This document shows, in pieces, positions 3,914 through 63,979 of a DNA stretch of 64,000 nt. How positions within the stretch are numbered: position 1 is the first letter of the stretch; every line of letters starts with the position of its first letter. The DNA comes from a virus. Its lineage: Duplodnaviria > Heunggongvirae > Uroviricota > Caudoviricetes. The stretch lies in IMG/VR virus record IMGVR_UViG_3300033463_000003, one strand, 5' to 3'. A program made the position numbers and the translations under genes. The notes below the pieces were generated by a model. That model saw only the letters and a list, made by a program, of their open reading frames with translations. It had not been told where the DNA came from and did not search any database.

Positions 3914-3980
3914 TACATTTTTAATAGCTTAAAATGAAAGGATTAAACAGTTTTGTTTAATTTTTTATTTGGAGTGTGCT

Positions 3981-7112: not shown

Positions 7113-7592
7113 ATGTTAGATGTAATATCATATGCATTAGCCCGAGGTTACACAAATGCTGCAATTAGTCAAGCTGGCAGCGGCTCTAAAGAAATTGAAG
7201 TTGAGGAAATTTCAGGAGCCGTTCCAAAAGATAAATTAGATGAGCTATTAAAGTCAAATAGAAACATAATTGTATGTAATGGTAGATACTACTGTTTAGC
7301 TCGTATTGAAGGAAATAACTACAAATATATAAACTCAACAACAAATGGTGCAGGCCAAGTTATTAATATGACTGAGCTTGACATTGATAAAAATACTGGT
7401 GATTTCTTCACAAAACAAATTGTATTTGAAGGCTCATCAGTTCAATACTTAGAAGATGCGTTAAACGCACACATTAATGATAATAATGTTCACATTACTG
7501 CAACGGAGCGTAATTACTGAAATAACAAGGTCTCCGCTGAGGCAGAAAGTATTTCAGGTGAACAAGATTATAAATTAAAGTTAAAGCATTAA
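7113..7592 (+). CDS. Putative tail-associated protein (code 4; TGA 7518-7520 = Trp)
   Basis: Read-through gives HITATERNYWNNK, the common H-x3-ER-x2-WN-x-K phage tail motif; ends TAA 7592. Confidence 0.75.
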
Positions 7593-12100: not shown

Positions 12101-12263
12101 CGGAACCAGTAGTATTTTTAGTAATAGTATATTGAGCATAGTTAGTGGTTCAATCAGCATTATGATATGCTCTAGATTCATTAGATATACTTAAATTACT
12201 ACTTCCAGTTGTACCAGAAGGAATAAGCGTTACCGAATCAGTTACTGTTTCAATTCTACTCAT
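9171..12263 (-). CDS. 1030-aa Ig-like/beta-sandwich repeat tail fibre or adhesin (code 4; four TGA=Trp)
   Basis: Extends the 830-aa track ORF in both directions; several ~83-aa repeats; GT[TGA]SRSDLNNL mirrors internal STWSPSDFDNL; C-terminal YVKVNRH[W] and FVKVAGE[W] motifs. Confidence 0.8.
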
Positions 12264-22373: not shown

Positions 22374-22460
22374 AGAGCTAAATTAAATGATAACTTTGGC
22401 AATTGTTTAGGACATGATGTGTCAATTTAATGCTGAGTTAATCTATAAAGGGAGACTAAT

Positions 22461-26425: not shown

Positions 26426-26676
26426 TGGGTATATTCTTAATTATTATTGGTGCTATATTAGCATTTTGTTGCGGAATAGTTTATTTTGGTACTGCTCTAG
26501 CTACAAAAAGTCAAGAAAACTGGGATGACTTTATGAAGAGCTTTGAAGAAAATAATTTATCTGTCCCAGAAGAAACAGTTTATTCAATGGTATCAAGAAT
26601 GAAATTAATATCTGGCTGTGCTGCAGTATTTGGTATTATTTGCCTTCTTGGTGGCATTTTATTACAAATTTTTTAA
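26425..26676 (+). CDS. Two-TM membrane protein
   Basis: Hydrophobic N- and C-terminal helices. Confidence 0.55.
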   Translation: MGIFLIIIGAILAFCCGIVYFGTALATKSQENWDDFMKSFEENNLSVPEETVYSMVSRMKLISGCAAVFGIICLLGGILLQIF

Positions 26677-26868
26677 TTGAAAGGAATTGAAATTATGGAA
26701 GTCAAGAAAATTGCAGAATTTACAACAGCAGAAGTTGAAACATTAACAGCAGCTGGTAAGATTTTAGGTACTTTAGCAAATGCTATTGCTGCTTCAGAAG
26801 TTGACGGCCTTGATGTTGACTCAACAAACTTAATTATGGCTTTAAAAGATGTTATTGCCAGGGTGTAA
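26677..26868 (+). CDS. Hypothetical protein
   Basis: ORF track; true start probably ATG of MEVKK. Confidence 0.5.
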   Translation: MKGIEIMEVKKIAEFTTAEVETLTAAGKILGTLANAIAASEVDGLDVDSTNLIMALKDVIARV

Positions 26869-27012
26869 TTTATGTCAAGAAAAGATTATATTAATAGACG
26901 CCTCATGGAATTAGCTTGTATTGTAGAAACAAGAGGGCTTGATCCGGTTGAAGCAGAAGAAGAAAAAAGATTAGAAATTGAATTAGAAACTTTATCTAAG
27001 GAGGAGTAGATA

Positions 27013-49645: not shown

Positions 49646-50560
49646 ATGTCAGAAAATTTTTCATATTCAAAACTAGAAACATATGACCAATGTTCTTTTA
49701 AGTATAAATTAAAATATGTTGATGGGCATTATATTTACAGTGCTAATATTGCAACAGAGTTTGGAACAGCTATTCATGAAGCTGAAGAAACAATAGCAAA
49801 TAGCATTAAGGACGGAAAACCAATTGATTATATTGCTATTAAAAATAAATTAATTATGAAGCTTGCTGAGTTAGAACATAAATATCCAGAAGCTTACCGT
49901 GAAGAGCTAGATAAAGCATTTAAAACATATAAAGATAAAGCATATGACTATTTAGAACACGGCATTTATAGACTTGAAAATTTCTTAAAAGCAAATCCAC
50001 AAATTAAGGTGGTAGGAGCTGAGATTCCAATTAAGTTTGAATACAAAGATAAATATGTTTTTAAAGGTTTTATCGATAGATTACTTCTTGATACAAATAC
50101 TAATAAATATATTCTTCAAGATATTAAAACTTGGGGTGTGCCAAAAGAGCAAAAAGAATTAACAACGCCACTCCAATTTGTTATTTATTCAATGGCATTA
50201 AAAGATTTATACAAATGTACAACTGATGATATTAAATGCCAATATGATTTACCAGTATGTGATTTAGTTCAAGATGCTGGTACAAGTGGTTTTATCGGAC
50301 GTGGTATGAAGAAACTTGATAGCTTATTTGATAAAATTGAAAAGCAAGAATTTGAACCAAAGCCAAGTCCATTATGCCACTGGTGTGAATTCTGTGCAAC
50401 TAACCCAAATCAACCAGAAGATGGGAAGAACTTATGCCCATACCACTCTTTATGGACAAAAGATAGAAAAACATTTGAAAAAGCTTCTGAGTGGAAAGGA
50501 CTTGCTGAACATGGCATTGTCCTGGAGGCTTATATCAATAAAAACAAAAAAACTGTATAA
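49646..50560 (+). CDS. PD-(D/E)xK (RecB/Cas4-like) exonuclease
   Basis: SYS.L..Y.QC, G.AIH, G.IDR, DIKT, Q..IY, C.WC.F. Confidence 0.8.
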   Translation: MSENFSYSKLETYDQCSFKYKLKYVDGHYIYSANIATEFGTAIHEAEETIANSIKDGKPIDYIAIKNKLIMKLAELEHKYPEAYREELDKAFKTYKDKAYDYLEHGIYRLENFLKANPQIKVVGAEIPIKFEYKDKYVFKGFIDRLLLDTNTNKYILQDIKTWGVPKEQKELTTPLQFVIYSMALKDLYKCTTDDIKCQYDLPVCDLVQDAGTSGFIGRGMKKLDSLFDKIEKQEFEPKPSPLCHWCEFCATNPNQPEDGKNLCPYHSLWTKDRKTFEKASEWKGLAEHGIVLEAYINKNKKTV

Positions 50561-50590
50561 TATAATATAACTTGAAAGGAAATTTTAATT

Positions 50591-50779
50591 ATGGCTAAAA
50601 AAGAATTTGATATTAAAAAAGTATTTGAAGACACTTTAAAAGGTTTTAATAATGACCTTGTTGCAACTAATGCAAGAATTGGCCTTATTACAGAACTTGT
50701 TAACTTTTTTGAAACAAATAAATTAGTTGTTTATCAAGAAGTAGAAGAAGAATCAAAAGCTAAAAAGGAAGAAAAATAG
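50591..50779 (+). CDS. Hypothetical protein
   Basis: RBS AAAGGA. Confidence 0.5.
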   Translation: MAKKEFDIKKVFEDTLKGFNNDLVATNARIGLITELVNFFETNKLVVYQEVEEESKAKKEEK

Positions 50780-50783
50780 TTTA

Positions 50784-51380
50784 ATGTCAACTCCACAAGA
50801 AGAAATTACTGCAATTCGTGAAGCATTACAGCCTATTTCAAAAACACCAGAAGAAAATAAGACACTTTGTGAAAAATATCCATTTTTAAAGTGGTATGGT
50901 GATCCTCTTTATGTTGGCTATGACGAAGAACATGAGCTTGATTATAAATATACCTGGGAAGATGAAATACCTGATGGCTGGCGAAAAGCTTTTTGTCCAC
51001 AAATATGGGATGAGCTTAAAGCTATTTTAGAGCAAGGTGATTATCTTGATAAATTTAGATTTTCCCAAATTAAAGAAAAATTTGGAACTATTAGACTTTA
51101 TCATTGTGGCGTCCCAGAAGAAATATTTAATGAAATTATTAAGTGGGAATCTAAATGGGAAAAAGAGTCTGCAAAAACTTGTATTGACTGCGGTGCTCCT
51201 GCAACTCATATGTCAACTGGCTGGATAAACTTTATCTGTAGGGATTGTGCTAGAACTCGTGCTGCTGAACAAGAAAAGCATTATGGCGGGCATGATCATT
51301 TCGTTAAAATAGAAAATATTGACGAATTTTATAATGACCGTGAGGCTTATTGGAAAAAGCATAAAGATGAGGAAATCTAA
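50784..51380 (+). CDS. Conserved phage protein
   Basis: GW...QIKEKFG.IR.Y ... C..CG...GWI...C motif common in large phages. Confidence 0.65.
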   Translation: MSTPQEEITAIREALQPISKTPEENKTLCEKYPFLKWYGDPLYVGYDEEHELDYKYTWEDEIPDGWRKAFCPQIWDELKAILEQGDYLDKFRFSQIKEKFGTIRLYHCGVPEEIFNEIIKWESKWEKESAKTCIDCGAPATHMSTGWINFICRDCARTRAAEQEKHYGGHDHFVKIENIDEFYNDREAYWKKHKDEEI

Positions 51381-51977
51381 ATGATTAAGTTAAGTGCTTG
51401 GGATAGATTATATTGTAATACTATGGACTGAGCTTTAAGAAGAATGGCGCCCAATGATTTAGAATTTTATCATGATACTATTCAAGATTGGACTGATGCT
51501 TTATTAGCTTTTCAAAAAGTTAAAGAAGAATTGTTTAAAACTTATAGCATTACCTATAAGTCTGGCAATAAGTTTAAAAGAAGCTGTATTAAAGGTTTGG
51601 AATTAACTGCAGACCAATTATTTGAATTATTTCATAAACATTTAGAGCAATATACAAATAAAACTGTTAGATATTTTATCTTTCATTGGTGGAATGATCT
51701 AAGATATTATATTGAAGGTGCACAACCAACATTAGACTGTCCTTGGGAACTTTATAAAGAAGCTACTAAAGAAGAAATTGAACAAGCAAATAAAAATTTT
51801 ATTGGACATACATTCAATAGTGGTAGAATATTAGAGTATCGTGGTATCAGATTTCCTATTGATGATGAATGGAATGATGCTTGGATTGTTGCTAAAGATG
51901 GCCATGTTAGAAGCTTCCAGTTAGTCTGGGATTGGTGATACCCAATAGATGAATTCCTGGACTTATATAATCTTTAA
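51381..51977 (+). CDS. Hypothetical protein (code 4; TGA at 51429 and 51936)
   Basis: ATG directly follows the upstream stop; read-through joins both ends; ends TAA. Confidence 0.65.
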
Positions 51978-52045
51978 AAAGTAAGCCATAGTGCTTATTT
52001 TTTATTTACTTTTTATTGTATAATATATAGAAGAGGTAAATCAAC

Positions 52046-52189
52046 ATGGCAGAAGAAAAGAAGAAGAAAAAAATAGCAACAAGGCATATTCGCAAAGCAT
52101 TAAGAAAAAATGGCTTTGGTAAAAAGAAAAAAACTAAGAAAGAAATTGAAGAAGAGGCCTTAGCCGTGTGGATTTGGCCAGGAGAGTAA
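52046..52189 (+). CDS. Small basic protein
   Basis: GAGG RBS after TATAAT; 47 aa, Lys-rich. Confidence 0.45.
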   Translation: MAEEKKKKKIATRHIRKALRKNGFGKKKKTKKEIEEEALAVWIWPGE

Positions 52190-52191
52190 TA

Positions 52192-52797
52192 ATGGAACTT
52201 AGATTTGCAAAAAAAGAAGCTGAAGGTAAAGTTAAGGAAGTTCAAAATGTTTTAGATGACCTTATTGAAAAGCATAAAAAAGAAACAGCTGAAAATGAAG
52301 ATTACCAGGCTATGATGACTGAATATAAAAAGAGCCTTGGCAAAATCAATAAAGATGGTTGTAGTAGCCCTTGGGAATGGAGCTATGGACTAGATTATTT
52401 AGTTGAATTTCTTCGTTTCATGAAAGATTATTACACTTTAGGCGTGAATGTCTGGGCAATGGAAAGAAAGGATGAAGATCCTAAAAAATATAAAAATGCT
52501 CCAACCAGACTTCAGACTTTAACTAAAACTCTTGAATACTACGATAAATGGCAAAATCTTGAAGATGAATATATTACAGTAGTTGAACATCCAGAAACAT
52601 TTAAAGAACATGATAATGGCGATGGAACTGTTACTATTGATGACTTTGGTTTCCATTGTGAATATAAATATGGACCTAAAAATAATAGAAGAAAAGCTAT
52701 GAAAATTACATACAAAAAATTATATAAAGCCCAACAAAAATATAAAAAATTATTCTTCATGTCATTATTTGAACATATTGAAGAGTGGTGAGATTAA
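52192..52797 (+). CDS. Hypothetical protein ending W-W-D (code 4; TGA 52789)
   Basis: EEW[TGA]D-TAA; WWD C-termini are frequent in such phage proteins. Confidence 0.6.
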
Positions 52798-52808
52798 AGG
52801 GGGGCTCT

Positions 52809-53153
52809 ATGAAAGAATACAATAGAATTTATTTTAATAAAAATGACGTGGCAGCTGGTTTACACTTAAAGTTTGTAAATTTTCTTTTATCTAACCTTGA
52901 AACTAGTGACTATAGAGTTGATGTCCATATATTTACAGAAGATTGTGATGCTATTGTTGTTGAGTTTGCAAGGCAACTTTGGGATTGCATAGATGATATG
53001 GGCAAATTTGAATTTGTTAATGGTGATGAAGCTGTTGTAAAAGAAGTTATATTACCAGATAATACATTTACATATGCTGATAGCGAAGAAGAGGCAAAAT
53101 CATTAATTGATGATTGGTATAAAGCACGTAAGAAAGTAAAGGATAAAGAATAA
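52809..53153 (+). CDS. Hypothetical protein, paralogue of 1582..2010
   Basis: Shared motifs listed for 1582..2010. Confidence 0.6.
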   Translation: MKEYNRIYFNKNDVAAGLHLKFVNFLLSNLETSDYRVDVHIFTEDCDAIVVEFARQLWDCIDDMGKFEFVNGDEAVVKEVILPDNTFTYADSEEEAKSLIDDWYKARKKVKDKE

Positions 53154-53344
53154 TGAAAAAGTTTTGGGAAACAGTATTAAAAGTATTAGAAACAATTGTT
53201 GGTGTTATTTTAGCATTTATTGGTGCTATTTTAATTTCCCCATTTGTTGTTTTATATGTTTTATTTGCATTACCTTGTGCTGTTATTGCTGATATTTGGG
53301 ATAAGCCAGAAGTAATTTATAGTAGTTGGGGGAGTGAAGAATAG
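53153..53344 (+). CDS. Small membrane protein
   Basis: Long hydrophobic stretch. Confidence 0.5.
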   Translation: MKKFWETVLKVLETIVGVILAFIGAILISPFVVLYVLFALPCAVIADIWDKPEVIYSSWGSEE

Positions 53345-54261
53345 TGAAATATTTTATTGTATCAGACATCCATAGTTTTGCTACAGAATTAAAATACGCA
53401 TTAAAAGGTGCTGGTTTTGATAAGAAAAATAAAGATCACACATTAGTTGTAGTTGGTGATATTTTTGACCGTGGTGATGAAACAATTGAAACATATAATT
53501 TTCTTTCTTCAATTCCTAAAAAGCGTTGTATCTTAATTAAAGGCAATCATGAATTCTTATTTAGGGACTTACTTAGAAAGAGCTGGCCAGAAAGCCATGA
53601 TTTTTCTAACCATACAGTTGATACATTTTGTCAAATTGCCCATCGTGATATTGCTGATTTACACAATGGTGATGTAGACTGGGAAGAAATTAAAGCTTTT
53701 GTTAAAACAAGTAAAATCTGGGCATGGCTTCAATCAAAACAATGGAAAAACTATTTTGAATTAGGTCCTTATATTTTCTGTCATTCATTTATTCCCGTTA
53801 GTTTAAAACCAAAGTTTAAATCAGCAGCTATGTATTATGGGACTTGGAACCTATCTGGTAAAGCATTTAAATATTGGGATGATTGGCGTAATGCTATGGA
53901 TTTTCAATGGGAAGATGCAACCTGGGGAGACCCAATTGACTACTACCAAGCTGGATTATTTGAAGAAGAAAGTAAAAAAGGTAAAGTATTGGTAGTCGGG
54001 CACTGGCATGTTTCTGATTTCTGGAAGCGCCTTGCAAATATTAAAAGCTATGAAAGTCCAATTACTGAAATATATTATAGTAAAGATTTTATTGGACTTG
54101 ATTGTGGTGTATTTCGTGAACCATATGGAGGCTATTTCCACCCACAAAATGTCTTAGTTATTGATGATGCAGATTTTAGTAAGTGTTATGATACTTATGG
54201 TTATGAGCTTGAATATGTAAAACCTGCACGAATTATTGAAACTGTTACACCAAAAAGCTAA
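53344..54261 (+). CDS. Metallophosphoesterase (Ser/Thr phosphatase family)
   Basis: SDIHS, GDIFDRG, GNHE, GHWH. Confidence 0.85.
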   Translation: MKYFIVSDIHSFATELKYALKGAGFDKKNKDHTLVVVGDIFDRGDETIETYNFLSSIPKKRCILIKGNHEFLFRDLLRKSWPESHDFSNHTVDTFCQIAHRDIADLHNGDVDWEEIKAFVKTSKIWAWLQSKQWKNYFELGPYIFCHSFIPVSLKPKFKSAAMYYGTWNLSGKAFKYWDDWRNAMDFQWEDATWGDPIDYYQAGLFEEESKKGKVLVVGHWHVSDFWKRLANIKSYESPITEIYYSKDFIGLDCGVFREPYGGYFHPQNVLVIDDADFSKCYDTYGYELEYVKPARIIETVTPKS

Positions 54262-54338
54262 ATCTTAACTGGTAGCACAGTTAGATAAAGTTTTAGTTGT
54301 GCTACCATTTTATTTGCTAAATTTATTGAGGCAAAAGT

Positions 54339-54734
54339 ATGAAAACTAAAATTAAAAGATATTGCGAATGATGTGGAAATGAAATTAAAGATCGACATGC
54401 TAAAAAATTTTGTTGTAGAGCCTGTTATCTTGAAGCACATAAATTAGAACACTATAAAAAATATTTAGAAGATAATTCTATTGCATGGGGCATTCAAAAC
54501 ATGCAGCGATATAAAAAATATTTTTTAGAAGAACAAAATCATAAGTGTGCTATTTGTGGCTGCGATGATACTTGACAAGGTAAACAACTAGTATTTATAT
54601 TAGATCATATTGATGGCAATGCCGATAATAATAACCGAGATAATTTAAGGCTAATTTGCCCAAATTGTGACTCGCAATTAGATACTTATAAATCAAAAAA
54701 TAAAAATTCAGCTAGAAAAAAATATCGTAAATAA
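54339..54734 (+). CDS. HNH endonuclease (code 4; TGA at 54369 and 54573), absent from ORF track
   Basis: CAICG...T[TGA]QGKQL...LDHIDG..NN...NLRL.CPNC.SQ..TY..KN; Trp is typical at this position in the family. Confidence 0.88.
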
Positions 54735-54748
54735 TGTATATTATATTT

Positions 54749-55031
54749 AGGAGAGTGGTGTAACGGTAGCACAGCGGTCTTCTGTTAATTGGAGCACTTA
54801 TTAAGGGATTAGTAAGTGAATGGTGTAAATTCAATGAACCCTGTAAAATGGTAACGTTGAGCGAAGCCTCGAAAGAGGAACGTGCAGAGACTATAATCAC
54901 CCATCTAGACCAGATGAAAGCATAGTCCAGACCACAAACTGTTAGGCAATGAAAATTGTAGTGGTAAGCAAAACCGTAAAGAGGAGCTTCCAAAACTCCG
55001 GGCGCGGGTTCGAATCCTGTCTCTCCTGCCA
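54749..55031 (+). tRNA. tRNA with anticodon UCA (UGA-decoding, Trp-type), split by a group I intron, with 26-nt extra arm
   Basis: Exons 54749-54781 + 54969-55031 rejoin to GCGGT-CT-TCA-AA-ACCGT; acceptor AGGAGAG/CTCTCCT, G73, CCA; A1-U72, G2-C71, G3-C70 as in bacterial tRNA-Trp. Confidence 0.85.
54782..54968 (+). mobile_element. Group I intron (187 nt, resembling the tRNA-Leu(UAA) IC3 type), no ORF
   Basis: P/Q/R/S-like elements AAATTCAATGAA, GTTGAGCGAAG, GTGCAGAGACTA, GCATAGTCC; P7 GACTA/TAGTC; U.G wobble at 5' splice site; terminal G. Confidence 0.88.
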
Positions 55032-55097
55032 TAAGTTTATATTAATTTAAAAAATATAAGCTAAATTAAATGAGTTTGAGTAAATCAAACTTACATA

Positions 55098-55166
55098 GTG
55101 AAAAGCACACCCGTAGAAATGCGGGGTCGCAAAACTATAGGGTCTTATTAAAGATAGCCAGTTGCC
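55098..55166 (+). promoter_or_regulatory. GEMM-I (c-di-GMP-I family) riboswitch aptamer, A20 variant
   Basis: G-CACAC-CCGTA-GAAA-TGCGG-GGTCGC-AAAACTATAGGGTCT...AGATAGCCAGTTGCC fits P2 (GAAA tetraloop), P3 and junction pattern. Confidence 0.85.
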
Positions 55167-55252
55167 TCAATCAAAGTATTTTGGTTGGGGCTTTATTTTT
55201 AATAAGATAGCCAGCTGCCTCAATCGTTCTATACGGTTGGGCATTTTATTTT
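55164..55252 (+). terminator. Two tandem intrinsic terminators, each preceded by a copy of the aptamer 3' end
   Basis: GCCTCAATC..GGTTGGGGC-TTTATTTTT, then GATAGCCAGCTGCCTCAATC..GGTTGGGC-ATTTTATTTT. Confidence 0.75.
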
Positions 55253-55273
55253 GTAGAAAAGGAGGCAAGGTTA

Positions 55274-55975
55274 TTGGATAGAGATATTGCATTAAAGTAT
55301 GTCAGACGAAAAAAACGCAATAAAAGAGTCGCAATAATTTCAGGCATTAGCACAATAATTCTTACAATATTCATAATTATTGCCTTCAGTCTGATTCATG
55401 TTGATAGATTTACTATCACAACAAGTGAAGAGCCTGAGCTGTGCTTAACACTTAATCAAAAAGAGTTTACAACTAAACTTACAGCTCCTCCACTTCTTAA
55501 AGCAACAGATACTCAATATACTTACGTAATTGAAAATCTGGATGAAACTGAAGGGAGTAAAAACACAGATTATTATTTCGCTTATTCCTTCTATTTAGGT
55601 GGCCAGGGTAAATCAGAGAGTATAAACTATAACTTAGCTTTATCGCTTGATAAATACTCAAATAACATTGAAGAAGCAATAAGAGTGATGATAATAAGGA
55701 ATGGTATAAAAGAAGTTTATGCTAAACCAGACCAAAATGGAGAAGCTAAACCAATCTATTACGGTGAAACACATGAAAGTGCACCAGAACAAATTGGAAT
55801 AACAACACCATTTAGATCAAATAAAAACATTATAGTTGAAGCGTACGAAATCAAACCTGGCGACTTTGATAAATACACAATTGTAATGTGGATCGACGGT
55901 TGGGAATCCGTCAACGAAATGAAGGGCGGGGTGTTCTCAGCCAATATAAAATTCTCAACTCATTCAATTAATTAA
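55274..55975 (+). CDS. Membrane-anchored extracellular protein
   Basis: Basic N-terminus plus one TM helix; TTG start with GGAGG RBS. Confidence 0.65.
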   Translation: MDRDIALKYVRRKKRNKRVAIISGISTIILTIFIIIAFSLIHVDRFTITTSEEPELCLTLNQKEFTTKLTAPPLLKATDTQYTYVIENLDETEGSKNTDYYFAYSFYLGGQGKSESINYNLALSLDKYSNNIEEAIRVMIIRNGIKEVYAKPDQNGEAKPIYYGETHESAPEQIGITTPFRSNKNIIVEAYEIKPGDFDKYTIVMWIDGWESVNEMKGGVFSANIKFSTHSIN

Positions 55976-55995
55976 TTTTAAGGAGAAAAAGAAAA

Positions 55996-56892
55996 ATGAA
56001 AAGAAAATCAAAAATCTTAGCAGCTGCTATTGGATTATTAGCATTTAGCACAGCTGCATCGATCACAGGCACAGTCGCTTGGTTCACAGCTAGTAATGTT
56101 GTTTCTGCCGAAGGTATTTATGTTATGGCAGAAAAAGAAGATGGTATTGTTATGGCTAATGAAGACTTTGATTCTTGGTCAACAGCTGTTCAAGCTTCAC
56201 ACGATGGCACAATTGGTAGTCCAGCGGCTCAAGCAGGATTTATTCCAACAAGTACAAAAGATGCTTCTACATGGGCACATGCTAGTGCAGTTCAAGCAGA
56301 CGATGAATTAGCTGTTGAATCTTCATATGCATTAGTTACACCAACATTAAATGGTTCCGATACTGGTATTTATAAAGCTTCTATTAACAATGTTGATAAG
56401 AATATTTATTTATTAAATACTTTCTATCTTAAATCAGCAAGCACAGACCCAATTTCTGGCAATTTATATTCTTATGTTAAAGCTGAAGTTGTTGGTACAA
56501 GCGTTAGTGTTGAATTAAATAAAGCTTTAAGAGTTTTAGTTAAATATGGCTCTGATGTTAATGTCTATGCTCCAATTAATGGTGCAACTACTTCTTACTC
56601 TGTTTGTACAGCTATTAACTCTGGTGATAATCCAGCAACCACAGATGTTACTGAAACAAGCTATCCAACAAAAGAATCTGTTTCAGCTCTTACTGGTGCC
56701 ACTACAAACTTATTAAAGAGTAATGTTACAATTCCAGCAAATAATCCAGATAGTGTAAATGTTAATACTTTCCCAGTAAACGTTTACTGCTACTTTGAAG
56801 GTGAAGATGCTGCTTGCTTCTCTAATAACATTAAAGCAACATTAGATCAACTTTCAATTACTGTTAAACTTGGAACTAGTTCAACTCTTTAG
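55996..56892 (+). CDS. Secreted fibre/pilin-like protein with SipW-cognate-type signal peptide
   Basis: Basic-hydrophobic leader ending GTVAWF; Thr/Ser/Asn-rich beta body. Confidence 0.6.
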   Translation: MKRKSKILAAAIGLLAFSTAASITGTVAWFTASNVVSAEGIYVMAEKEDGIVMANEDFDSWSTAVQASHDGTIGSPAAQAGFIPTSTKDASTWAHASAVQADDELAVESSYALVTPTLNGSDTGIYKASINNVDKNIYLLNTFYLKSASTDPISGNLYSYVKAEVVGTSVSVELNKALRVLVKYGSDVNVYAPINGATTSYSVCTAINSGDNPATTDVTETSYPTKESVSALTGATTNLLKSNVTIPANNPDSVNVNTFPVNVYCYFEGEDAACFSNNIKATLDQLSITVKLGTSSTL

Positions 56893-56967
56893 TATCTAGT
56901 TTAATTAAATAACTTAGGGCTAGATACGCCAATCTAGCCCTTTATTTCCCTTAAAGGAGGCTTAAGT

Positions 56968-57642
56968 ATGTCTAAGAAAACAATTAAATTAATTGCAGCT
57001 ACTTCTATGGCTATCTTTAATTTACTTGCTTTATTTGCTGGTACTTTTGCCTGGTTTGTAAATACTAAAAAAATAGATGGTAATAATATAGCTGTGCAAA
57101 TGGAAGCACATGAATTAAATTTATCACATAGTATTTATAAATTTGATGATAATTTAAAATCTATAGTAGAAGTTAATACTTTAGATTTAAATCCATATGA
57201 TACTGTTATTACTGAAAGAAATGAAAATAATGCTATCATAATTAAAGCAACTTTGCAGAGTAATATGTTTAGTGACCAAGCTACAGCTGATGTAAATATT
57301 AAATTACACTGCTTAGAAGAATATGCCACTACAGATTATCTTTCAAATATTACACATTTTAAGTTTGCCCCACTTTCTATTACTTCTACCAACATTACAG
57401 ATATTTACAATCAAGCTGTAGCTGGTTTAGAAAATGAGACACCATTAAAATTTATTACAACAGTTAAATTAACTGAAATTGAAACAACTATTATAAATGC
57501 GCCAATTATTAATAATCAAGTAGTTATTTATGGCTTATTTAACTATGATGAACCATTAATTACTGCACGTGGAATTGACTTTGAAGAAGCACCAACATTT
57601 AGTAATGATATAGACTGGTTGAGGTTTGGAATACATGATTAA
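56968..57642 (+). CDS. Secreted protein with SipW-cognate-type signal peptide
   Basis: Leader ending GTFAWF. Confidence 0.6.
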   Translation: MSKKTIKLIAATSMAIFNLLALFAGTFAWFVNTKKIDGNNIAVQMEAHELNLSHSIYKFDDNLKSIVEVNTLDLNPYDTVITERNENNAIIIKATLQSNMFSDQATADVNIKLHCLEEYATTDYLSNITHFKFAPLSITSTNITDIYNQAVAGLENETPLKFITTVKLTEIETTIINAPIINNQVVIYGLFNYDEPLITARGIDFEEAPTFSNDIDWLRFGIHD

Positions 57643-59953
57643 AAAACGTTTTGCTTATATTTTAATCACTTTATTCTCTGGACTATTATTAGCATTGTCT
57701 GGAATTACTTTAGCTTGGTTTTTCAATACTACTGCAGATATTAATATTACTGCTGATGGTGAAATTTTTACAAATTATTTTCATTGCGGTAATGGTTCTG
57801 AGGATGAGCCATATGTAATTACTCGCCCAGTGCATTTATATAACTTAACAAAACTATATGAAGAACTTCCAGATTTTGCTTCTTCTAATCATCATTTTCA
57901 ACTTGGTTATGATTTAGAAAATAATGGTAATTTAGAATTCTATTCTTATAATGATGCCGGAGTTCAACAATCGGGATATTCTGATAGTTTAAACATGAAT
58001 TATTATGAAAACTTTGTTCCAATTGGCAGCGAAATAAAGCCATTTGGAGGCACTTTCGATGGTTCTAGCTTAACTATTAATAACTTAAATATTTCAGGCT
58101 CAGGAATTTCAGATATTGGTGTTTTTGGTTATGTTACTAAAGATGCTGAAATTAAGGATTTATATATTAATAACTTAGAAATTGATATTACAGATGCAGT
58201 TGATGATGAACATAATCATAGTAATGCTTATGTTGGTTATATTGCAGGCCATATTGATGATGCAACCTGTTTTACAAATACTTATGTAAATAACTGTGAA
58301 ATTACTGGTAATTCAGTATTAACCAAAAATGACTGGGGCTATTTCGGTTATTGTAAAAATGCTGCTTCTATTCAAGCTTTTATTGATAAAGCTAAAGAAG
58401 GTCAAGGTGAGGCCAGCACTTGGGGTGGCTCAATCGCTTTTGATGCTTTCAACCAAAGATTATATCATCACATAAGTTCAGCAAGCAATATTAGATTTAA
58501 AAACGGAAATTCTACATATACAAACGGTTTAATTAGAACTGAGTCCGATAGTGATAGTGCTATTACAGTTTATAGAGGCGGCAATGCTTCTACAGCAGCT
58601 ACTTATTTAAGTCAAGACCCAGCAAATAATTATGTTGTTTATAATATGATTGGTGCTGGAACTCACTCAATTAATAATAAGCAAAATAATTCTGGCACTA
58701 CTTATACTGCTACTTCTGCTGTTAATGGTACTTATGAGCCATTAATTATTGATAGTGATTATACTGTTGCTGATAGAAATACAGGTTATTTAACTAGCTC
58801 ACAATATACTCAAAATGGTTCAAGCCACTACTACAATGCCATTGATGGTACTGTTCGTTCAGCCTCTTATCCAAATGGTCAAATTGCAAACTCTTTAGAT
58901 GACAGTTATCATAATCAAAGCAGTCTATATAATGGTTCAACCGGTGGCCCAAAATTTACTTATGATGGTAGTAAGCTTGAAATCTTAACAAACAGCTCTG
59001 CTTCTTATGGTGCCAGTAATTATAGATTAATTAGCGATGATTATAATTCAGGCCACACTGTTTCTAATTCAGCTTTAACAGGTTATACAAAAACTAACTA
59101 TGACACATTAGGCTTAAAAAGATATAAGTCAGCTAGAGCTCATTTAGAACAAGTTTTATCCGGAAGTCAATATGTTCATGGTATTCACTTTATGGGTGAG
59201 GCTCCTGCTGCAAATAAAACAGTTAATGTCCCCCATGCAGTGATTAATGGTGAAGTGAACTCTAATTATCCAGTTTTATTAAGCACTGTTGACTTCGTAG
59301 TTCAAGAAGAAGGCTATATCACCTTATTTGCTGGCGCTTATTATCCAGCAACGCAAACTACTATTGCTGATAGTTTCTTTGATTTATATAAAGTAAATAG
59401 AAATGCTAACGGTGGTATTGCTTCTATTCAAAAAGTATATAAAATTTATAAAGATTCTAATAATAATTATACTTATACAAGTTCAGCTAATCAAACAGTA
59501 TCAGGTGCAACTTTAATGTTTGATATGAGCTATTTAACAAGTCAGCCACCAAAGAATAATGTTGCTTACTATTTTGAAATTCCAGTTGATGCTGGTGAAT
59601 TTGCTATTGGTGCTGTATCTGGAAAAACTGCTGGCGCTTATTTAATGTATCTTGACTTAGGAACAAATGGTGGTGAGGGCCAAGAAGAAACATTGGTTGA
59701 TGATTTTGGCTCAGTTGAATATAGAACAACGCCAGATACAGTAGAACATAATATAGTTTTAATTACTTATATTCAACAAGCGTCTCAAACAAACACATTA
59801 TCAGTTGTTTACATTGAAAGTGAAAAAAGATATAATATTTCATATTCTGGCACACTTACTCAAATTATAGTTACAGTTTTAAATACTGACTATTATGTCT
59901 ATTTTAATGGCACTCTATTGCTGCAGGAAATTCAATCAAATTACTTAAATTAA
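57635..59953 (+). CDS. Large adhesin-like secreted protein with SipW-type leader and GLUG-like segment
   Basis: Leader ending ITLAWF; G.G...PY.I, F.G.FDG...TI.NL.I, G.FGY pattern. Confidence 0.6.
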   Translation: MIKKRFAYILITLFSGLLLALSGITLAWFFNTTADINITADGEIFTNYFHCGNGSEDEPYVITRPVHLYNLTKLYEELPDFASSNHHFQLGYDLENNGNLEFYSYNDAGVQQSGYSDSLNMNYYENFVPIGSEIKPFGGTFDGSSLTINNLNISGSGISDIGVFGYVTKDAEIKDLYINNLEIDITDAVDDEHNHSNAYVGYIAGHIDDATCFTNTYVNNCEITGNSVLTKNDWGYFGYCKNAASIQAFIDKAKEGQGEASTWGGSIAFDAFNQRLYHHISSASNIRFKNGNSTYTNGLIRTESDSDSAITVYRGGNASTAATYLSQDPANNYVVYNMIGAGTHSINNKQNNSGTTYTATSAVNGTYEPLIIDSDYTVADRNTGYLTSSQYTQNGSSHYYNAIDGTVRSASYPNGQIANSLDDSYHNQSSLYNGSTGGPKFTYDGSKLEILTNSSASYGASNYRLISDDYNSGHTVSNSALTGYTKTNYDTLGLKRYKSARAHLEQVLSGSQYVHGIHFMGEAPAANKTVNVPHAVINGEVNSNYPVLLSTVDFVVQEEGYITLFAGAYYPATQTTIADSFFDLYKVNRNANGGIASIQKVYKIYKDSNNNYTYTSSANQTVSGATLMFDMSYLTSQPPKNNVAYYFEIPVDAGEFAIGAVSGKTAGAYLMYLDLGTNGGEGQEETLVDDFGSVEYRTTPDTVEHNIVLITYIQQASQTNTLSVVYIESEKRYNISYSGTLTQIIVTVLNTDYYVYFNGTLLLQEIQSNYLN

Positions 59954-59971
59954 TGTTGTATAATATTAAAT

Positions 59972-60181
59972 ATGATATATAGAATTTTTTGGATAAACCC
60001 AGATAAACAAAGACAAGAAGTATCTGAATTTGAAGACCAAACTATTGCATTATTTGTAGCGAAGAAAAAAGTAAATGAAGGTATGCAAAATGTTGTCATT
60101 CAGCTTTTTCCAGGTAGCCAAACAATTCCAGATGATGCTATACCTGTTGTAGATGCTAAAATAGAAGAAGAAAATAATTAA
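59972..60181 (+). CDS. Hypothetical protein
   Basis: Own TATAAT promoter. Confidence 0.5.
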   Translation: MIYRIFWINPDKQRQEVSEFEDQTIALFVAKKKVNEGMQNVVIQLFPGSQTIPDDAIPVVDAKIEEENN

Positions 60182-60786: not shown

Positions 60787-60862
60787 GGGGGTGTAGCTCA
60801 ATTGGGAGAGCATCTGATTTGCATTCAGAGGGTTGGGAGATCGTGCCTCCTCACTTCCACCA
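60787..60862 (+). tRNA. tRNA-Ala(TGC)
   Basis: Cloverleaf, G3.U70, CCA; atypical T-loop ATCGTGC. Confidence 0.85.
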
Positions 60863-60866
60863 TTAT

Positions 60867-60941
60867 GGGCCGATAGTTTAATTGGGAAAACACCCGCCCT
60901 GCAAGCGGGAGTTACGGGTTCAATTCCCGCCGTGTCCACCA
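60867..60941 (+). tRNA. tRNA-Ala(TGC), imperfect acceptor stem
   Basis: CCCGC-CC-TGC-AA-GCGGG, CCA. Confidence 0.75.
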
Positions 60942-60946
60942 TTAAT

Positions 60947-61021
60947 GCCCCTGTAGTATAATGGCTATTACAGTTGTCTTGTAAACATCAGAAGGCCGTT
61001 CGATTCGACCCTGGGGCACCA
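60947..61021 (+). tRNA. tRNA-Thr(TGT)
   Basis: Cloverleaf, CT-TGT-AA loop, CCA. Confidence 0.85.
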
Positions 61022-61026
61022 TATAT

Positions 61027-61103
61027 CCGGGATTGGCTCAGTTTGGTAGAGCACTTGATTTGGGATCAAGGGGTCAAAAGTTCAAATCTTTTATCTCGGG
61101 CCA
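61027..61103 (+). tRNA. tRNA-Pro(TGG)
   Basis: CTTGA-TT-TGG-GA-TCAAG, CCA. Confidence 0.85.
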
Positions 61104-61108
61104 TAAAT

Positions 61109-61184
61109 GGGGCCATAGCTCAATTGGGAGAGCGCCACATTAGCATTGTGGAGGTTGCGAGATCGTCCCTCGTTGGTTCCACCA
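61109..61184 (+). tRNA. tRNA-Ala(AGC)
   Basis: CCACA-TT-AGC-AT-TGTGG, G3.U70, CCA; T-loop ATCGTCC. Confidence 0.85.
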
Positions 61185-61189
61185 TTATA

Positions 61190-61307
61190 GAACCTGTGCT
61201 TATTTCTAATAGGGCAAGCAGGTTGTCGCTGGTTCGAATCCAGCCTTCCCAACCATTATCGGGAAGTAGCTCAGTTGGCAGAGCACCCGCAAAATATTAG
61301 CCAGGTC
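61190..61307 (+). ncRNA. Carrier element copy B enclosing a circularly permuted tRNA (anticodon degenerate, possibly GGC)
   Basis: 3' half (T-arm, CTTCCCA-ACCA, ending 61255) precedes 5' half (CGGGAAG, D-arm, CCCGC; 61260-61290); closing stem ACCTG/CAGGT. Confidence 0.8.
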
Positions 61308-61312
61308 AAATT

Positions 61313-61388
61313 GCACTCTTAGCTCAGCTGGGAGAGCGACTGCTCGACGTGCAGTAGGTCATAGGTCCGAGCCCTATAGAGTGCACCA
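61313..61388 (+). tRNA. tRNA-Val(GAC) with C33
   Basis: ACTGC-TC-GAC-GT-GCAGT, CCA. Confidence 0.75.
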
Positions 61389-61559
61389 TTAAATTCATAG
61401 AAGGAGAAAAAGATTATGATGAATTTAACCAAAAAGATTAAAAATATAAGAAAAACCAAAAGAATTGGTTTCTTTCATCATGGCTTAATTAGTTAGTAAA
61501 AAACTTAAATTAATAGTTTATGCTGGGTAGTTAAGTCTGCTCAGCATTTTTATTAAATT

Positions 61560-61636
61560 GCCCCCATAACTCAACTGGATAGAGTAACGGTCTTCTAAAC
61601 CGTAAGTTGAAGGTCCGAGTCCTTCTGGGGGCGCCA
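61560..61636 (+). tRNA. tRNA-Arg(TCT)
   Basis: ACGGT-CT-TCT-AA-ACCGT, CCA. Confidence 0.9.
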
Positions 61637-61639
61637 TTA

Positions 61640-61697
61640 GAGCCTATACTTATTTCTAGCTTCAAGCAAACAACTTTTAATTGTTCATAGTTAGGCC
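61640..61697 (+). ncRNA. Carrier element copy C (two mini-hairpins as cargo)
   Basis: GAGCCTATACTTATTTCTA...ATAGTTAGGCC, spaced between two tRNAs. Confidence 0.7.
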
Positions 61698-61701
61698 ATA
61701 T

Positions 61702-61779
61702 GGGTCCATAACTCAGTTGGATTAGAGTACGAAACTTTTAATTTCGGAGTCGAGAGTTCGAGTCTCTCTGGACCCACCA
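61702..61779 (+). tRNA. tRNA-Lys(TTT)
   Basis: CGAAA-CT-TTT-AA-TTTCG, CCA. Confidence 0.88.
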
Positions 61780-61783
61780 ATAT

Positions 61784-61861
61784 GCACCCTTAGCTCAGTT
61801 GGCTAGCAGCACTACACTTTTAATGTAGGGGTCCTGGGTTCGAGTCCCAGAGGGTGCACCA
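61784..61861 (+). tRNA. tRNA-Lys(TTT)
   Basis: CTACA-CT-TTT-AA-TGTAG, CCA. Confidence 0.88.
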
Positions 61862-61864
61862 TAT

Positions 61865-61941
61865 ACCTCCTTAACTCAACTGGTTAGAGTACTTGCCTCT
61901 TAAGCATGGAGTTCTGGGTTCGAGTCCCAGAGGAGGTACCA
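61865..61941 (+). tRNA. tRNA-Lys(CTT)
   Basis: CT-CTT-AA loop, CCA. Confidence 0.88.
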
Positions 61942-61971
61942 TTAAAATAAATATATTGTATAATATATTAT

Positions 61972-62047
61972 GCCGGCTTAGCTCAGCTGTTAGAGCAACG
62001 CACTAGTAATGCGTAGGTCGGGGGTTAGAGTCCCTCAGCCGGCACCA
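61972..62047 (+). tRNA. tRNA-Thr(AGT)
   Basis: ACGCA-CT-AGT-AA-TGCGT, CCA. Confidence 0.85.
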
Positions 62048-62050
62048 TCA

Positions 62051-62158
62051 GAGCCCATGCTTATTTCTTTCGGCTTCTAACCGGGTGGTCGTTGGTTCGA
62101 ATCCAACCGTTCCAGTTGGAACGTAGCTCAGTGGGAGAGCACCTTATTTAGCTGGGCC
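62051..62158 (+). ncRNA. Carrier element copy D enclosing circularly permuted tRNA-Arg(TCT)
   Basis: 62071-62115 = positions 29-73; 62117-62143 = positions 1-28; rejoined CC|CGG-CT-TCT-AA-CCGGG; acceptor TGGAACG/CGTTCCA perfect; no CCA; closing stem GCCCA/TGGGC. Confidence 0.88.
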
Positions 62159-62211
62159 AAAACTAAAAAACTATATTATTTTAAGATTTTTCAATGTATA
62201 ATATAGTGCAT

Positions 62212-62286
62212 CCTCCTGTAGCTCAACAGTTAGAGCGGGCGCCTTATAAGCGTCATACCTTGGTGCGACTCCAGGCAGGAGGACCA
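62212..62286 (+). tRNA. tRNA-Ile(TAT)
   Basis: GGCGC-CT-TAT-AA-GCGTC, CCTCCTG/CAGGAGG, CCA. Confidence 0.8.
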
Positions 62287-62524
62287 ATAATAAAAAATAT
62301 ATGCTAAATTAAAATGCGAGGAGAGAACAAAATGATGATTAGAAGAAGTTATCAATTGAGCCAATTATCAGGTTTATGTGGTCATAACCAATTTTTGTTT
62401 TACTCCAATCGCGATTAAATAGAATAAGCTTAAAGTATAATATATAATTTAATGAGCAGCGATTGGAAAAATTGTTGCTCATTTTATTTACAAAGCAAAA
62501 ATTCTATGGTATAATATTAAATAC

Positions 62525-62599
62525 AGGGAAGTAGCCAAGTGGTAAGGCATGAGACTTTGACTCTCACATTCGAAGGTTCGACCCCTTCCTTCCCTGCCA
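62525..62599 (+). tRNA. tRNA-Gln(TTG)
   Basis: TGAGA-CT-TTG-AC-TCTCA, CCA. Confidence 0.88.
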
Positions 62600-62601
62600 A
62601 T

Positions 62602-62686
62602 GCTCTGGTGGTGGAACTGGCATACACATGGCACTTAAAATGCCACGCCGTAAGGATTGAGAGTTCAAATCTCTCCCGGAGCACCA
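62602..62686 (+). tRNA. tRNA-Leu(TAA)
   Basis: TGGCA-CT-TAA-AA-TGCCA, long variable arm, CCA. Confidence 0.9.
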
Positions 62687-62690
62687 TTAT

Positions 62691-62767
62691 GCTCCTCTAG
62701 CCCAACTGGCAGAGGCAATAAGCTCAAAACTTATTCAGTCTGAGTTCGAATCTCAGGGGGAGTACCA
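62691..62767 (+). tRNA. tRNA-Leu(CAA) with short variable loop
   Basis: ATAAG-CT-CAA-AA-CTTAT, CCA. Confidence 0.8.
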
Positions 62768-62770
62768 TAA

Positions 62771-62891
62771 GAGCCTATGCTTATTTCTTAAGGACTGAAA
62801 ATCCGCGTGTAGGTGGTTCAACTCCATCCCTTCCCGCCAAATATTTGGGAAGTGTAGCTCACCGGTAGAGCAGCGAACTATTAGCTAGGCC
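62771..62891 (+). ncRNA. Carrier element copy E enclosing circularly permuted tRNA-Phe(GAA)
   Basis: 62792-62839 = positions 29 to CCA; 62847-62874 = positions 1-28; rejoined GC|GGA-CT-GAA-AA-TCCGC; closing stem GCCTA/TAGGC. Confidence 0.85.
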
Positions 62892-63191
62892 AAAAAATAA
62901 AAAATTTCAGAAATATATTTACAATTAATTAAAAATGTTGTATAATATATGTGAGCGTTAAAAATATACGCTAAATTATAATGGCGCAAAGCTAGGAAGG
63001 AAAAGATTATGCAAAAACTATCTATCATGTCCCTTAATCGTGAACATAGTGATTCAGTATATTTCGGTTGCTGGAATATTTTTGCTACCATCGGATCATC
63101 TAGTTTTGAGCAGGTTAATGAATAAATAAATTAAAAACATTAACAAAAAATGAAATTAGGTGGTCTGAATAAGATCACCTTTTATTTTACT

Positions 63192-63277
63192 GGGTAGGTG
63201 GTAGAGTGGTCAATTACACCTGACTGTAAATCAGGCGCCACAGGCTTACGGTGGTTCGAATCCATCCCTGCCCACCA
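63192..63277 (+). tRNA. tRNA-Tyr(GTA)
   Basis: CCTGA-CT-GTA-AA-TCAGG, long variable arm, CCA. Confidence 0.9.
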
Positions 63278-63282
63278 GATAT

Positions 63283-63358
63283 GTGGACGTGAATCTGACG
63301 GTTTAGATGCTAGTCTGTGAAACTAGATTACTGAGTTCAACTCTCAGACATCCACCCA
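63283..63358 (+). tRNA. tRNA-His(GTG)
   Basis: CTAGT-CT-GTG-AA-ACTAG; G-1:C73; CCA. Confidence 0.85.
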
Positions 63359-63362
63359 AAAT

Positions 63363-63452
63363 GGTCTATTAGCTCAGTCTGGTAGAGCGGCCGACCAAAG
63401 TGTCGGTGACAAACAGCGCGCGAGTGCATTGGTTCAAATCCAATATAGACCA
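63363..63452 (+). tRNA. Atypical tRNA-like RNA (6-nt anticodon loop, 20-nt extra region, no CCA)
   Basis: Perfect acceptor GGTCTAT/ATAGACC, D- and T-arms; GCCGAC-CAAAGT-GTCGGT arm plus GCGC-GCGA-GTGC hairpin. Confidence 0.6.
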
Positions 63453-63460
63453 TCGTATAT

Positions 63461-63535
63461 GCTCCCATAGACAAGCGGTTAAGTCATGCGCCTTTCACGC
63501 GTATATCGCCGGTTCGAATCCGACTGGGAGTACCA
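63461..63535 (+). tRNA. tRNA-Glu(TTC)
   Basis: CT-TTC-AC loop, CCA. Confidence 0.88.
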
Positions 63536-63539
63536 AAAT

Positions 63540-63616
63540 GGGTCATTAGCTCAGCTGGTGGTAGCGACTGACTGTTAATCAGTAGGCCGAAGGTTCAAGT
63601 CCTTCATGACCCGCCA
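63540..63616 (+). tRNA. tRNA-Asn(GTT)
   Basis: ACTGA-CT-GTT-AA-TCAGT, CCA. Confidence 0.9.
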
Positions 63617-63620
63617 ATTT

Positions 63621-63694
63621 CCAGGCATAACTCAATGGTAGAGTGCACGACTGATAATCGTGATATCTTAGTTCAATTCTAGGTGCCTGGACCA
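63621..63694 (+). tRNA. tRNA-Ile(GAT)
   Basis: CACGA-CT-GAT-AA-TCGTG, CCA. Confidence 0.88.
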
Positions 63695-63697
63695 TAT

Positions 63698-63771
63698 AGG
63701 AGTTTGGTATATTGGCCGTGCCTTGGTCTCCAAAACCAATGAAGTGAGTTCGATTCTTACAACTCCTGCCA
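63698..63771 (+). tRNA. tRNA-Trp(CCA)
   Basis: TTGGT-CT-CCA-AA-ACCAA, G73, CCA. Confidence 0.88.
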
Positions 63772-63773
63772 AT

Positions 63774-63852
63774 GGCCCTGTAGCTCAGCCGTGGTGAGAG
63801 CACTGGTCTGAAAAACCAGGTGTCGGCGGTTCGACTCCGCCTGGGGCCACCA
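63774..63852 (+). tRNA. tRNA-Phe(GAA)
   Basis: CTGGT-CT-GAA-AA-ACCAG, CCA. Confidence 0.9.
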
Positions 63853-63902
63853 AATAGTTAATTTATTATAGATTAACTGTATAATATTATGTATTGCAAC
63901 AT

Positions 63903-63979
63903 TGCGGGGAAGTGTAACGGTTTGCATCTGAGGCTCATAACCTCAGGGTAGTGAGGTTCAACTCCCACCCCCGCGACCA
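63903..63979 (+). tRNA. tRNA-Met(CAT)
   Basis: TGAGG-CT-CAT-AA-CCTCA, CCA. Confidence 0.85.

Follow-up and report, generated by a model that had tools for sequence, protein, structure and literature searches.

A probable mobile group I intron within an opal-suppressor tRNA gene from a phage using UGA as a tryptophan codon

What is an intron doing in the middle of the anticodon of a tRNA which a phage appears to need for reading its own genes? This question is raised by a locus in a stretch of phage DNA of 64,000 nucleotides (referred to below as the window, always meaning the whole stretch), for which a preliminary description, made from the letters of the sequence, had placed a 187-nt group I intron between U34 and C35 of a tRNA with the anticodon UCA. 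It had gone on to propose that self-splicing could act as a timer for stop-codon read-through. As described below, the intron is exactly where it was said to be; the data taken together are, in our opinion, probably explained by a mobile, selfish group I intron which resides in the essential opal-suppressor tRNA gene of a rumen phage using UGA as a Trp codon.

Neither default ARAGORN nor the Rfam tRNA model called any tRNA at 54749-55031, and the 21-23 tRNAs which these tools did report in the window are all located at 60.7-64 kb. When introns were allowed, ARAGORN found one tRNA(tca) on the plus strand, in which an intron of 187 nt separates ‘gtctt’ from ‘caaaa’. The split gene is thus missed by standard tools because the intron interrupts it. 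The 5' exon provides the 5' strand of the acceptor stem, the D arm, the 5' strand of the anticodon stem and the loop bases C32, U33 and U34; the 3' exon provides C35 and A36, the 3' strand of the anticodon stem, a variable region of 26 nt, the T arm, the 3' strand of the acceptor stem, G73 and an encoded CCA (Table 1). The spliced product is a Trp-type tRNA(UCA) of 96 nt which folds as a cloverleaf with all its stems intact. Among 24 distinct sequences of this tRNA we found no mismatch in the acceptor stem, the D stem, the first (UCA) anticodon arm, the T stem or four of the five pairs of a second arm described below, the anticodon loop CUUCAAA was the same in all 24, and the exons displayed both purifying selection and compensatory changes. 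The exact intron junction of the window had no match in viral contigs, and a megablast search with positions 50000-60000 gave no match among GenBank phages.

Table 1. Positions of the split tRNA gene, its intron and neighbouring features in the window
Feature	Position	Strand	Basis or remark
Terminator-like hairpin	54270-54307		just 5' of the motif at 54316
Promoter-like motif GCTAAATTTATTGAG	54316..54330	+	5 occurrences in window vs 0.11 expected; 5' of HNH gene
HNH-type endonuclease gene, free-standing, 131 aa	54339..54734	+	weak Pfam matches; 70% identity to ORF in L034 intron
5' exon of tRNA(UCA)	54749..54781	+	ARAGORN with introns; covariation in 24 distinct mature sequences
Group I intron, 187 nt, without ORF	54782..54968	+	after U34; Rfam RF00028, consensus fold, U(-1)/G(omega) register, same-site homologs
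P7	54889-54894 paired with 54922-54927	+	group I intron feature
P9a with GAAA loop	54947-54958	+	group I intron feature
Omega-G, final intron base	54968	+	U(-1)/G(omega) register
3' exon of tRNA(UCA)	54969..55031	+	ARAGORN with introns; 24 distinct mature sequences
Arm 2 hairpin GGAGC-UUCCAAA-ACUCC	54983..54999	+	24 distinct sequences; unconstrained scan
c-di-GMP-I riboswitch	55094-55170		RF01051, 59 bits vs cut-off 35; 63 nt after tRNA
Tandem terminator-like hairpins	55164-55191, 55219-55241		repeat part of the c-di-GMP-I aptamer
ORF, 233 aa, without family match	55274-55975		after the tandem terminator-like hairpins

A search with group I models had been suggested in the preliminary description as a check, and the Rfam Intron_gpI model indeed matches 54771-54961 over its full length (1-253) with 42.9 bits and an E value of 1.5e-9, which falls short of the gathering score of 50 for RF00028. 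Same-site introns of relatives are likewise under this score in the eight relatives checked. It needs to be mentioned that, in the Williams 2020 survey, tRNA introns were accepted from 18-20 bits with the same model. Additional support comes from the splice sites. Out of eight splice registers, a single one has U at position -1 (U34, 54781) and G at omega (54968), and this register yields the anticodon UCA; the +1 register also yields UCA but has C at both positions, and those remaining yield GCA or UCU without a valid omega-G. Hence splicing at other sites to a non-UCA anticodon, an outcome which the preliminary description had listed against itself, is not what is predicted here, and both ARAGORN with introns and the register analysis agree with its statement that UCA exists only after splicing. 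A guide sequence GGAG (54791-54794) pairs with exon bases C32-U33-U34 and gives a U34.G wobble (with G54792) in P1; the GAG of this guide is kept in all family members. As read from the sequence, UUG at 54789-54791 could form P10 with the three bases which open the 3' exon.

The core of the intron is conserved in structure. Aligning ten related intron cores gave 33 consensus pairs, located in P6, P7, P8, P9 and P9a, and compensatory changes were seen at 16 of these pairs. The count leaves out P1-P3 because MAFFT shifts these helices between intron subgroups. When the sequences are read singly, P2 and P3 covary too, P3 being UGGUG/CACCCA in one case, GCGGAU/AUCCGC in another and CACGAU/AUCGUG in a third. 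On one hand, therefore, the U.G wobble in P1, the omega-G and the covarying core helices are those of a group I intron; on the other hand, the gathering score is not reached. The intron also falls into the tRNA intron class ‘3Ug’ as defined in Williams 2020, as it has the junction CUU/c...g/CAAA and leaves a regular tRNA after removal.

The phage needs such a tRNA, as can be judged from its genes. Most plus-strand genes of the window are open in the standard code, and about a dozen need TGA as a sense codon. TGA was found in tail-fibre-like ORFs (7113-7592; 9171-12263 minus strand), a membrane protein, PhoH, a lipase and the HNH gene which precedes the tRNA; the genes of DNA polymerase and of the CCA-adding enzyme are free of it. 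The TGA site of PhoH corresponds to W in nine of nine homologs (GTWGTGKT), and the second TGA of the HNH gene corresponds to W79, a residue shared by all 16 sequences compared, the most distant of which have 61% identity. Because TGA aligns with an invariant W in both proteins, we conclude that it is read as Trp.

In the window, which is a part of a genome, we found no second UCA tRNA, in line with the preliminary description. For a view of an entire genome we turned to a complete relative of 148,358 bp with terminal repeats (G004), whose ORFs add up to 192 kb under code 4 vs 125 kb under code 11. An intron-aware scan of this whole genome revealed a sole UCA tRNA, and it is the split one, with a 605-nt intron. 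As the only UCA tRNA of this phage is split, its own decoding of UGA depends on splicing. The intron-less junction was not found in the records of five relatives; a match to it with one mismatch in G004 lies in coding sequence and is not a tRNA. No bona fide bacterial chromosome carried the family tRNA in the genome contig scan. The second, intron-less UCA tRNA which had been named as an observation that would speak against the earlier idea is thus absent from both the window and G004.

The variable region of this tRNA, on which the preliminary description was silent, forms a second arm. It stands in the position of the variable arm, 5 nt after the UCA arm, and it copies the anticodon stem-loop of tRNA-Trp with the anticodon CCA. 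The four stem pairs which have no mismatch in the 24 distinct sequences include three that occur as 3-4 pair types each and one that is an invariant G-C. A scan in which the variable region was left unconstrained recovered 81 intron-less viral UCA tRNAs with this anticodon arm; 17 of them have a short variable loop, and most of the others have a hairpin with a UCCA loop, in about 40 distinct sequences. One might speculate that arm 2 helps a TrpRS which reads CCA to accept a tRNA with UCA.

The second arm is also the reason for a different reading of the gene. ARAGORN labels it tRNA-SeC because of its UCA anticodon and long variable region, and there are viral UCA tRNAs with long arms, few among the 81, which resemble a true tRNA-Sec. 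However, the stems are those of another molecule: acceptor, T and D stems have 7, 5 and 4 pairs here, vs 8 and 5 pairs with a D stem of 6 in bacterial tRNA-Sec (selC). The gene has instead the features of a bacterial-type tRNA-Trp in a UCA variant, with the loop CU-UCA-AA, G73 in all 24 distinct sequences and A1-U72 in 22 of them, and the in-frame TGAs align with invariant Trp, as shown above. It could also be imagined that the gene is a dead pseudogene inactivated by the insertion, but the exons are under purifying selection with compensatory changes, and in G004 this gene is the only UGA decoder of a genome which requires one. A selenocysteine tRNA or a pseudogene thus seems to us extremely improbable, and tRNA(UCA) is rather an opal suppressor, presumably charged with Trp by the TrpRS of the host.

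If the suppressor is so important, why should it be interrupted? The distribution of the intron is informative in this respect. A search pattern anchored in the 3' exon alone gave 47 viral contigs. An intron occupies exactly this site in about 27 large viral contigs, and in about 17 the tRNA is present uninterrupted. Most intron-bearing contigs have a common 3' end, ...GUAGUGGUAAG|CAAAACCGU, and the lengths of same-site introns are 187-194, 341-360, 527-633 and 706-707 nt. Presence and absence of the intron on near-identical exons can be seen when L022, an intron-less allele, is set against L048; their 5' exon is identical. In the long introns the P1 loop contains an ORF, placed 3' of the 5' splice site and 5' of the guide. 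The product is in most cases a PD-(D/E)XK endonuclease (PF11645, E about 1e-15); in L034, L051 and L055 it is an HNH protein instead. Within 2.5 kb of the 17 intron-less loci there was not a single endonuclease gene; such genes were found only in or beside intron-bearing copies. Stops, frameshifts or deletions have disrupted some of them, and at nine intron-bearing loci no endonuclease gene lies nearby. The phages themselves may differ widely, as none of seven TGA-containing proteins of the window had a tblastn match in the complete relative G004, so that the intron is present in phages which share none of the seven proteins tested. Presence and absence on near-identical exons, varied cargo, decay of this cargo and unrelated backbones together trace a life cycle which is classic for homing introns.

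With a looser core motif we found similar introns in viral genes for tRNA-Met/Ile(CAU), Leu(UAA), Gln(UUG), Pro(CGG) and Leu(CAG). Scanning genome contigs gave 44 loci, of which three were true family members, all three on small MAG contigs; several of the others were 3' halves of tRNA-Trp(CCA), described below. As a side observation, two of the relatives carry other, unrelated group I introns (L026 at 3660-3925 on the minus strand and L034 at 3310-3541 on the plus strand, with 84 and 62 bits, above the Rfam cut-off), and the genomes of these phage relatives thus bear several introns. In G004, which is the contig of locus L030, the gene for tRNA-Leu(UAG) (26672-27546, minus strand) is also split, by a 791-nt insert in its anticodon loop, and is located about 600 bp from the split suppressor.

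The window copy of the intron has no ORF of its own, and a candidate partner is found just outside it. The HNH gene ends 14 nt 5' of the tRNA gene. Its Pfam matches are weak and below the cut-offs (HNH_3, 21.4 bits vs 24.8; Endonuclease_7, 18 vs 23.6), the motif LDHIDGN...N..NLRL.CPNC is conserved in 16 homologs, and the closest database homolog is 80% identical (19 contigs). The product is also homologous to the ORF within the L034 intron, so we regard it as an endonuclease which in the window is free-standing, beside an ORF-less intron. The closest database homolog has the layout of the window, an HNH gene and, behind it, a UCA tRNA whose intron is also 187 nt long, with different flanking genes; this cassette occurs in L236-L240. 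HNH genes are thus associated with this mobile intron both from inside and as its neighbours, and the window HNH protein is likely to be the homing endonuclease partner of the intron, a putative role assigned from its sequence and position.

The endonucleases and the tRNA seem to be wired together by the genetic code. All Trp codons are TGA in the intron-encoded endonuclease ORFs, as are three of three in L236 and two of three in the window HNH gene (in-frame TGA at 54369-54371 and 54573-54575); the background frequency of TGA is 9% in the window and 32% in G004. The first TGA appears early, at codon 4-5 of the intron-encoded endonucleases, codon 9 in L236 and codon 11 in the window HNH gene. 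With Trp encoded almost wholly by TGA, these endonucleases can be translated only once splicing and charging have made the interrupted tRNA functional. Judged by codon usage, the endonuclease is coupled to the very tRNA which its intron interrupts; a consequence would be late expression of the endonuclease, and possibly ribosomes would be kept out of the ribozyme core. An intron endonuclease with a preference for TGA was also reported for Agate phages in a preprint (Borges 2021, 10.1101/2021.08.26.457843).

The scheme which we favour, that of a selfish intron in an essential suppressor gene, would work as follows. The primary transcript would decode nothing until the intron is excised. The intron would fold, with P1 containing the U34.G wobble and with a P3-P9 core, and as a self-splicing element it would take up guanosine as cofactor; cleavage would follow U34, and the exons would be joined once the intron has also been released behind its terminal G. 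Ligation would give the 96-nt tRNA with the anticodon UCA, to be charged with Trp, presumably by host TrpRS. The endonuclease, for its part, would cut intron-less alleles in co-infecting phages, probably at the invariant anticodon-arm sequence, and repair of the cut allele would copy the intron in. Regulation of the timing of splicing would have no part in this scheme.

The idea of a timer deserves closer attention, as it was the central proposal of the preliminary description. According to it, the intron would have been co-opted as a gate or timer, and slow, folding- or guanosine-dependent splicing would delay tRNA(UCA) and in this way stage the TGA-containing late, lysis and endonuclease genes. 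It is true that the anticodon is formed only by splicing and that the sole UCA tRNA of the complete, heavily recoded G004 is a split gene. Moreover, TGA is absent from replication genes and present in tail-fibre-like genes, which matches the published model for recoded phages, the early TGA codons couple the endonuclease ORFs to suppressor activity, and retention of the intron in many lineages, along with TGA-coded endonucleases, fits co-opted regulation. However, many homologous suppressor tRNAs have no intron, some of them with near-identical exons, and recoding is therefore possible in its absence. A selfish life cycle agrees with the endonuclease cargo and with the decay of this cargo; there is no regulatory element next to the intron, and the c-di-GMP riboswitch downstream is not beside the tRNA in eight relatives. 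Related tRNA introns also splice fast in vitro, reportedly within about a minute in the hands of Zaug, McEvoy and Cech in 1993. Transcript data bear on this to a limited degree: runs matching the window are DNA only, from bovine gut metagenomes, RNA-library contigs of relatives contain the unspliced intron contiguous with the 3' exon, and a contig from one run of unspecified type joins 54781 to 54969, which could be either an intron-less allele or spliced RNA. With about 17 intron-less contigs, homing endonucleases of which some have decayed, and unrelated backbones, the pattern is that of a selfish intron. Splicing is obligatory for UCA, and some delay might arise as its by-product, but a timer role is not needed to explain the data, and we consider it unlikely.

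Two further readings build upon the endonuclease. It could be a weapon in competition between phages: by cutting the suppressor gene of co-infecting relatives which have no intron in it, the HNH protein would deprive them of UGA decoding and bring the markers that flank its own locus into the progeny, with the main benefit going to the phage and not to the intron alone. Such marker exclusion has been described for T4 intron endonucleases. The target would be well chosen, being an essential, single-copy gene in G004 with a loop invariant in all 24 distinct sequences, the cassette is spread over unrelated phage backbones, and endonucleases accompany only intron-bearing alleles. Nevertheless, cleavage by the HNH protein is a prediction, many intron-bearing copies have lost the endonuclease, and the proposal extends the homing model and offers no separate mechanism. 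We regard it as quite improbable. Another idea, to which we give a somewhat better, still low chance, joins the tRNA, the intron and the TGA-coded endonuclease in a self-referential switch, with arm 2 making a two-headed tRNA. Before splicing, ribosomes would halt at the early TGA (codon 4-5 in intron-encoded endonucleases, 9-11 in free-standing ones) and, in the intron-encoded versions, would stay out of the ribozyme core; as spliced tRNA accumulates, read-through would turn on the endonuclease and other TGA genes. Of the two heads, arm 2 would serve the CCA-reading host TrpRS and the UCA arm the ribosome.

How does the intron compare with systems already known? Its insertion point is that of the cyanobacterial tRNA-Leu(UAA) intron, as the preliminary description had correctly stated (‘3Ug’ in Williams 2020), and it shares with this intron the insertion between bases 3 and 4 of the anticodon loop, the U(-1) and the omega-G. 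It is also small like the tRNA-Leu(UAA) type (about 190-250 nt), and its core strongly resembles, by eye and from the Rfam match, those of the Azoarcus and Anabaena introns. Unlike the tRNA-Leu(UAA) intron, it is hosted by a phage Trp-type stop-codon suppressor and not by a cellular sense tRNA; the phage family shows polymorphism and has endonuclease genes, in contrast to the Leu intron, which passes vertically between generations and mostly contains no ORF. The 21 classes of Williams 2020 come from a survey of bacterial and archaeal assemblies only. Another counterpart is the tRNA-fMet intron of Synechocystis, whose endonuclease I-Ssp6803I is a PD-(D/E)XK enzyme with a target in the anticodon region; L029, L030, L043 and others similarly encode PF11645 proteins. 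In contrast to that intron, the window copy has no internal ORF and is paired with an outside HNH gene, and, unlike I-Ssp6803I, the endonucleases of this family depend for their translation on UGA read-through by the interrupted tRNA.

The separate HNH gene brings to mind collaborative homing, in which a free-standing endonuclease is encoded beside an ORF-less intron, as in S-PM2 F-CphI/psbA and T4 mobE/I-TevIII (PMC3984707, PMC6083498). In the present family the endonuclease gene adjoins the intron in the window and in L236 and is contained in it in L034, so both states of the proposed pathway are found in one family; the difference is that the putative target of the HNH protein is a tRNA gene and not a protein gene. 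With recoded phages (crAss-like, Lak, Agate) the window phage has in common its own tRNA(UCA) which reads TGA as Trp, and early genes free of TGA, as described in papers on their suppressor tRNAs (Yutin 2021, PMC7886860; Borges 2021 preprint, 10.1101/2021.08.26.457843). Theta ribozymes are found beside suppressor tRNAs (PMC10879173). An intron in a suppressor tRNA is not described in the searchable parts of the recoded-phage papers, and we found no published description of one there or elsewhere; a 2026 paper mentions ‘intronic sequences’ in tRNAs of alternative-code jumbo phages, with no detail.

If our interpretation is true, several consequences would follow. Recoded phage genomes with no detectable suppressor have been remarked on in PMC7886860 and PMC12386605, and an intron which hides the gene from default tRNA finders would explain why some of them seem to lack it. 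A 2014 review (PMC3984707) placed every phage group I intron then known in protein-coding genes; such introns would also reside in phage tRNA genes, and in the very tRNA which defines the genetic code of the phage. The alternative code would then depend on a ribozyme reaction, and the intron endonuclease would depend on that code, forming a compact and testable circuit. Finally, a family with the endonuclease both inside and beside the intron would represent a natural series for the proposed collaborative-homing route to mobile introns.

The surroundings of the gene provide some further observations. The motif GCTAAATTWAWTGAG occurs five times on the plus strand of the window where 0.11 copies are expected (556-570, 3677-3691, 22377-22391, 54316-54330 and 55060-55074), each time upstream of a gene, and three of these genes contain TGA (ORF 591, PhoH and HNH). 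It may represent a class of phage promoters, and the copy at 54316-54330 is probably, judging from its position, the putative start of a transcription unit comprising the HNH gene and the tRNA. Just 5' of the HNH gene, within the terminator-like hairpin, positions 54266-54280 match the D-arm sequence of the tRNA itself, TAACTGGTAGCACAG, at 14 of 15 bases. No other secondary match to exon 1 in the window is as good, and none of 2000 shuffles equalled it, but L236 does not share it; possibly an older 5' exon has left this trace from a stage when the HNH gene was inside the intron.

On the other side of the tRNA there is the c-di-GMP-I riboswitch. A link between riboswitch and intron, as in the allosteric ribozyme of Clostridioides difficile, was considered and rejected, the riboswitch being located beyond the 3' exon here and absent from eight relatives. 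As it is not beside the tRNA in those relatives, it probably controls the ORF downstream and not the intron.

Other tRNA-related features of the window and its relatives should be mentioned as well. The phage encodes a CCA-adding enzyme (14689-16170; phrog_2244, E 2.7e-65), and the suppressor tRNAs of several relatives have no encoded CCA end. No fewer than 23 tRNA genes are arrayed at 60787-63976 in the window, and one of them, at 63698-63771, is an ordinary tRNA-Trp(CCA). An odd, 93-nt tRNA-like gene at 63362-63454 scores 48 bits with the Rfam tRNA model and was assigned no anticodon by ARAGORN; its loop is of 6 nt (CAAAGU), and its variable arm is long and ends in a GNRA-type loop. Finally, 3' halves of tRNA-Trp(CCA), extending from the anticodon arm to the CCA end and preceded by unrelated sequence, occur twice per record in one viral contig (L039 and L044) and in Desulfosporosinus sp. 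FKB (L136 and L148), and may be att-site duplications of an element which integrates into tRNA-Trp.
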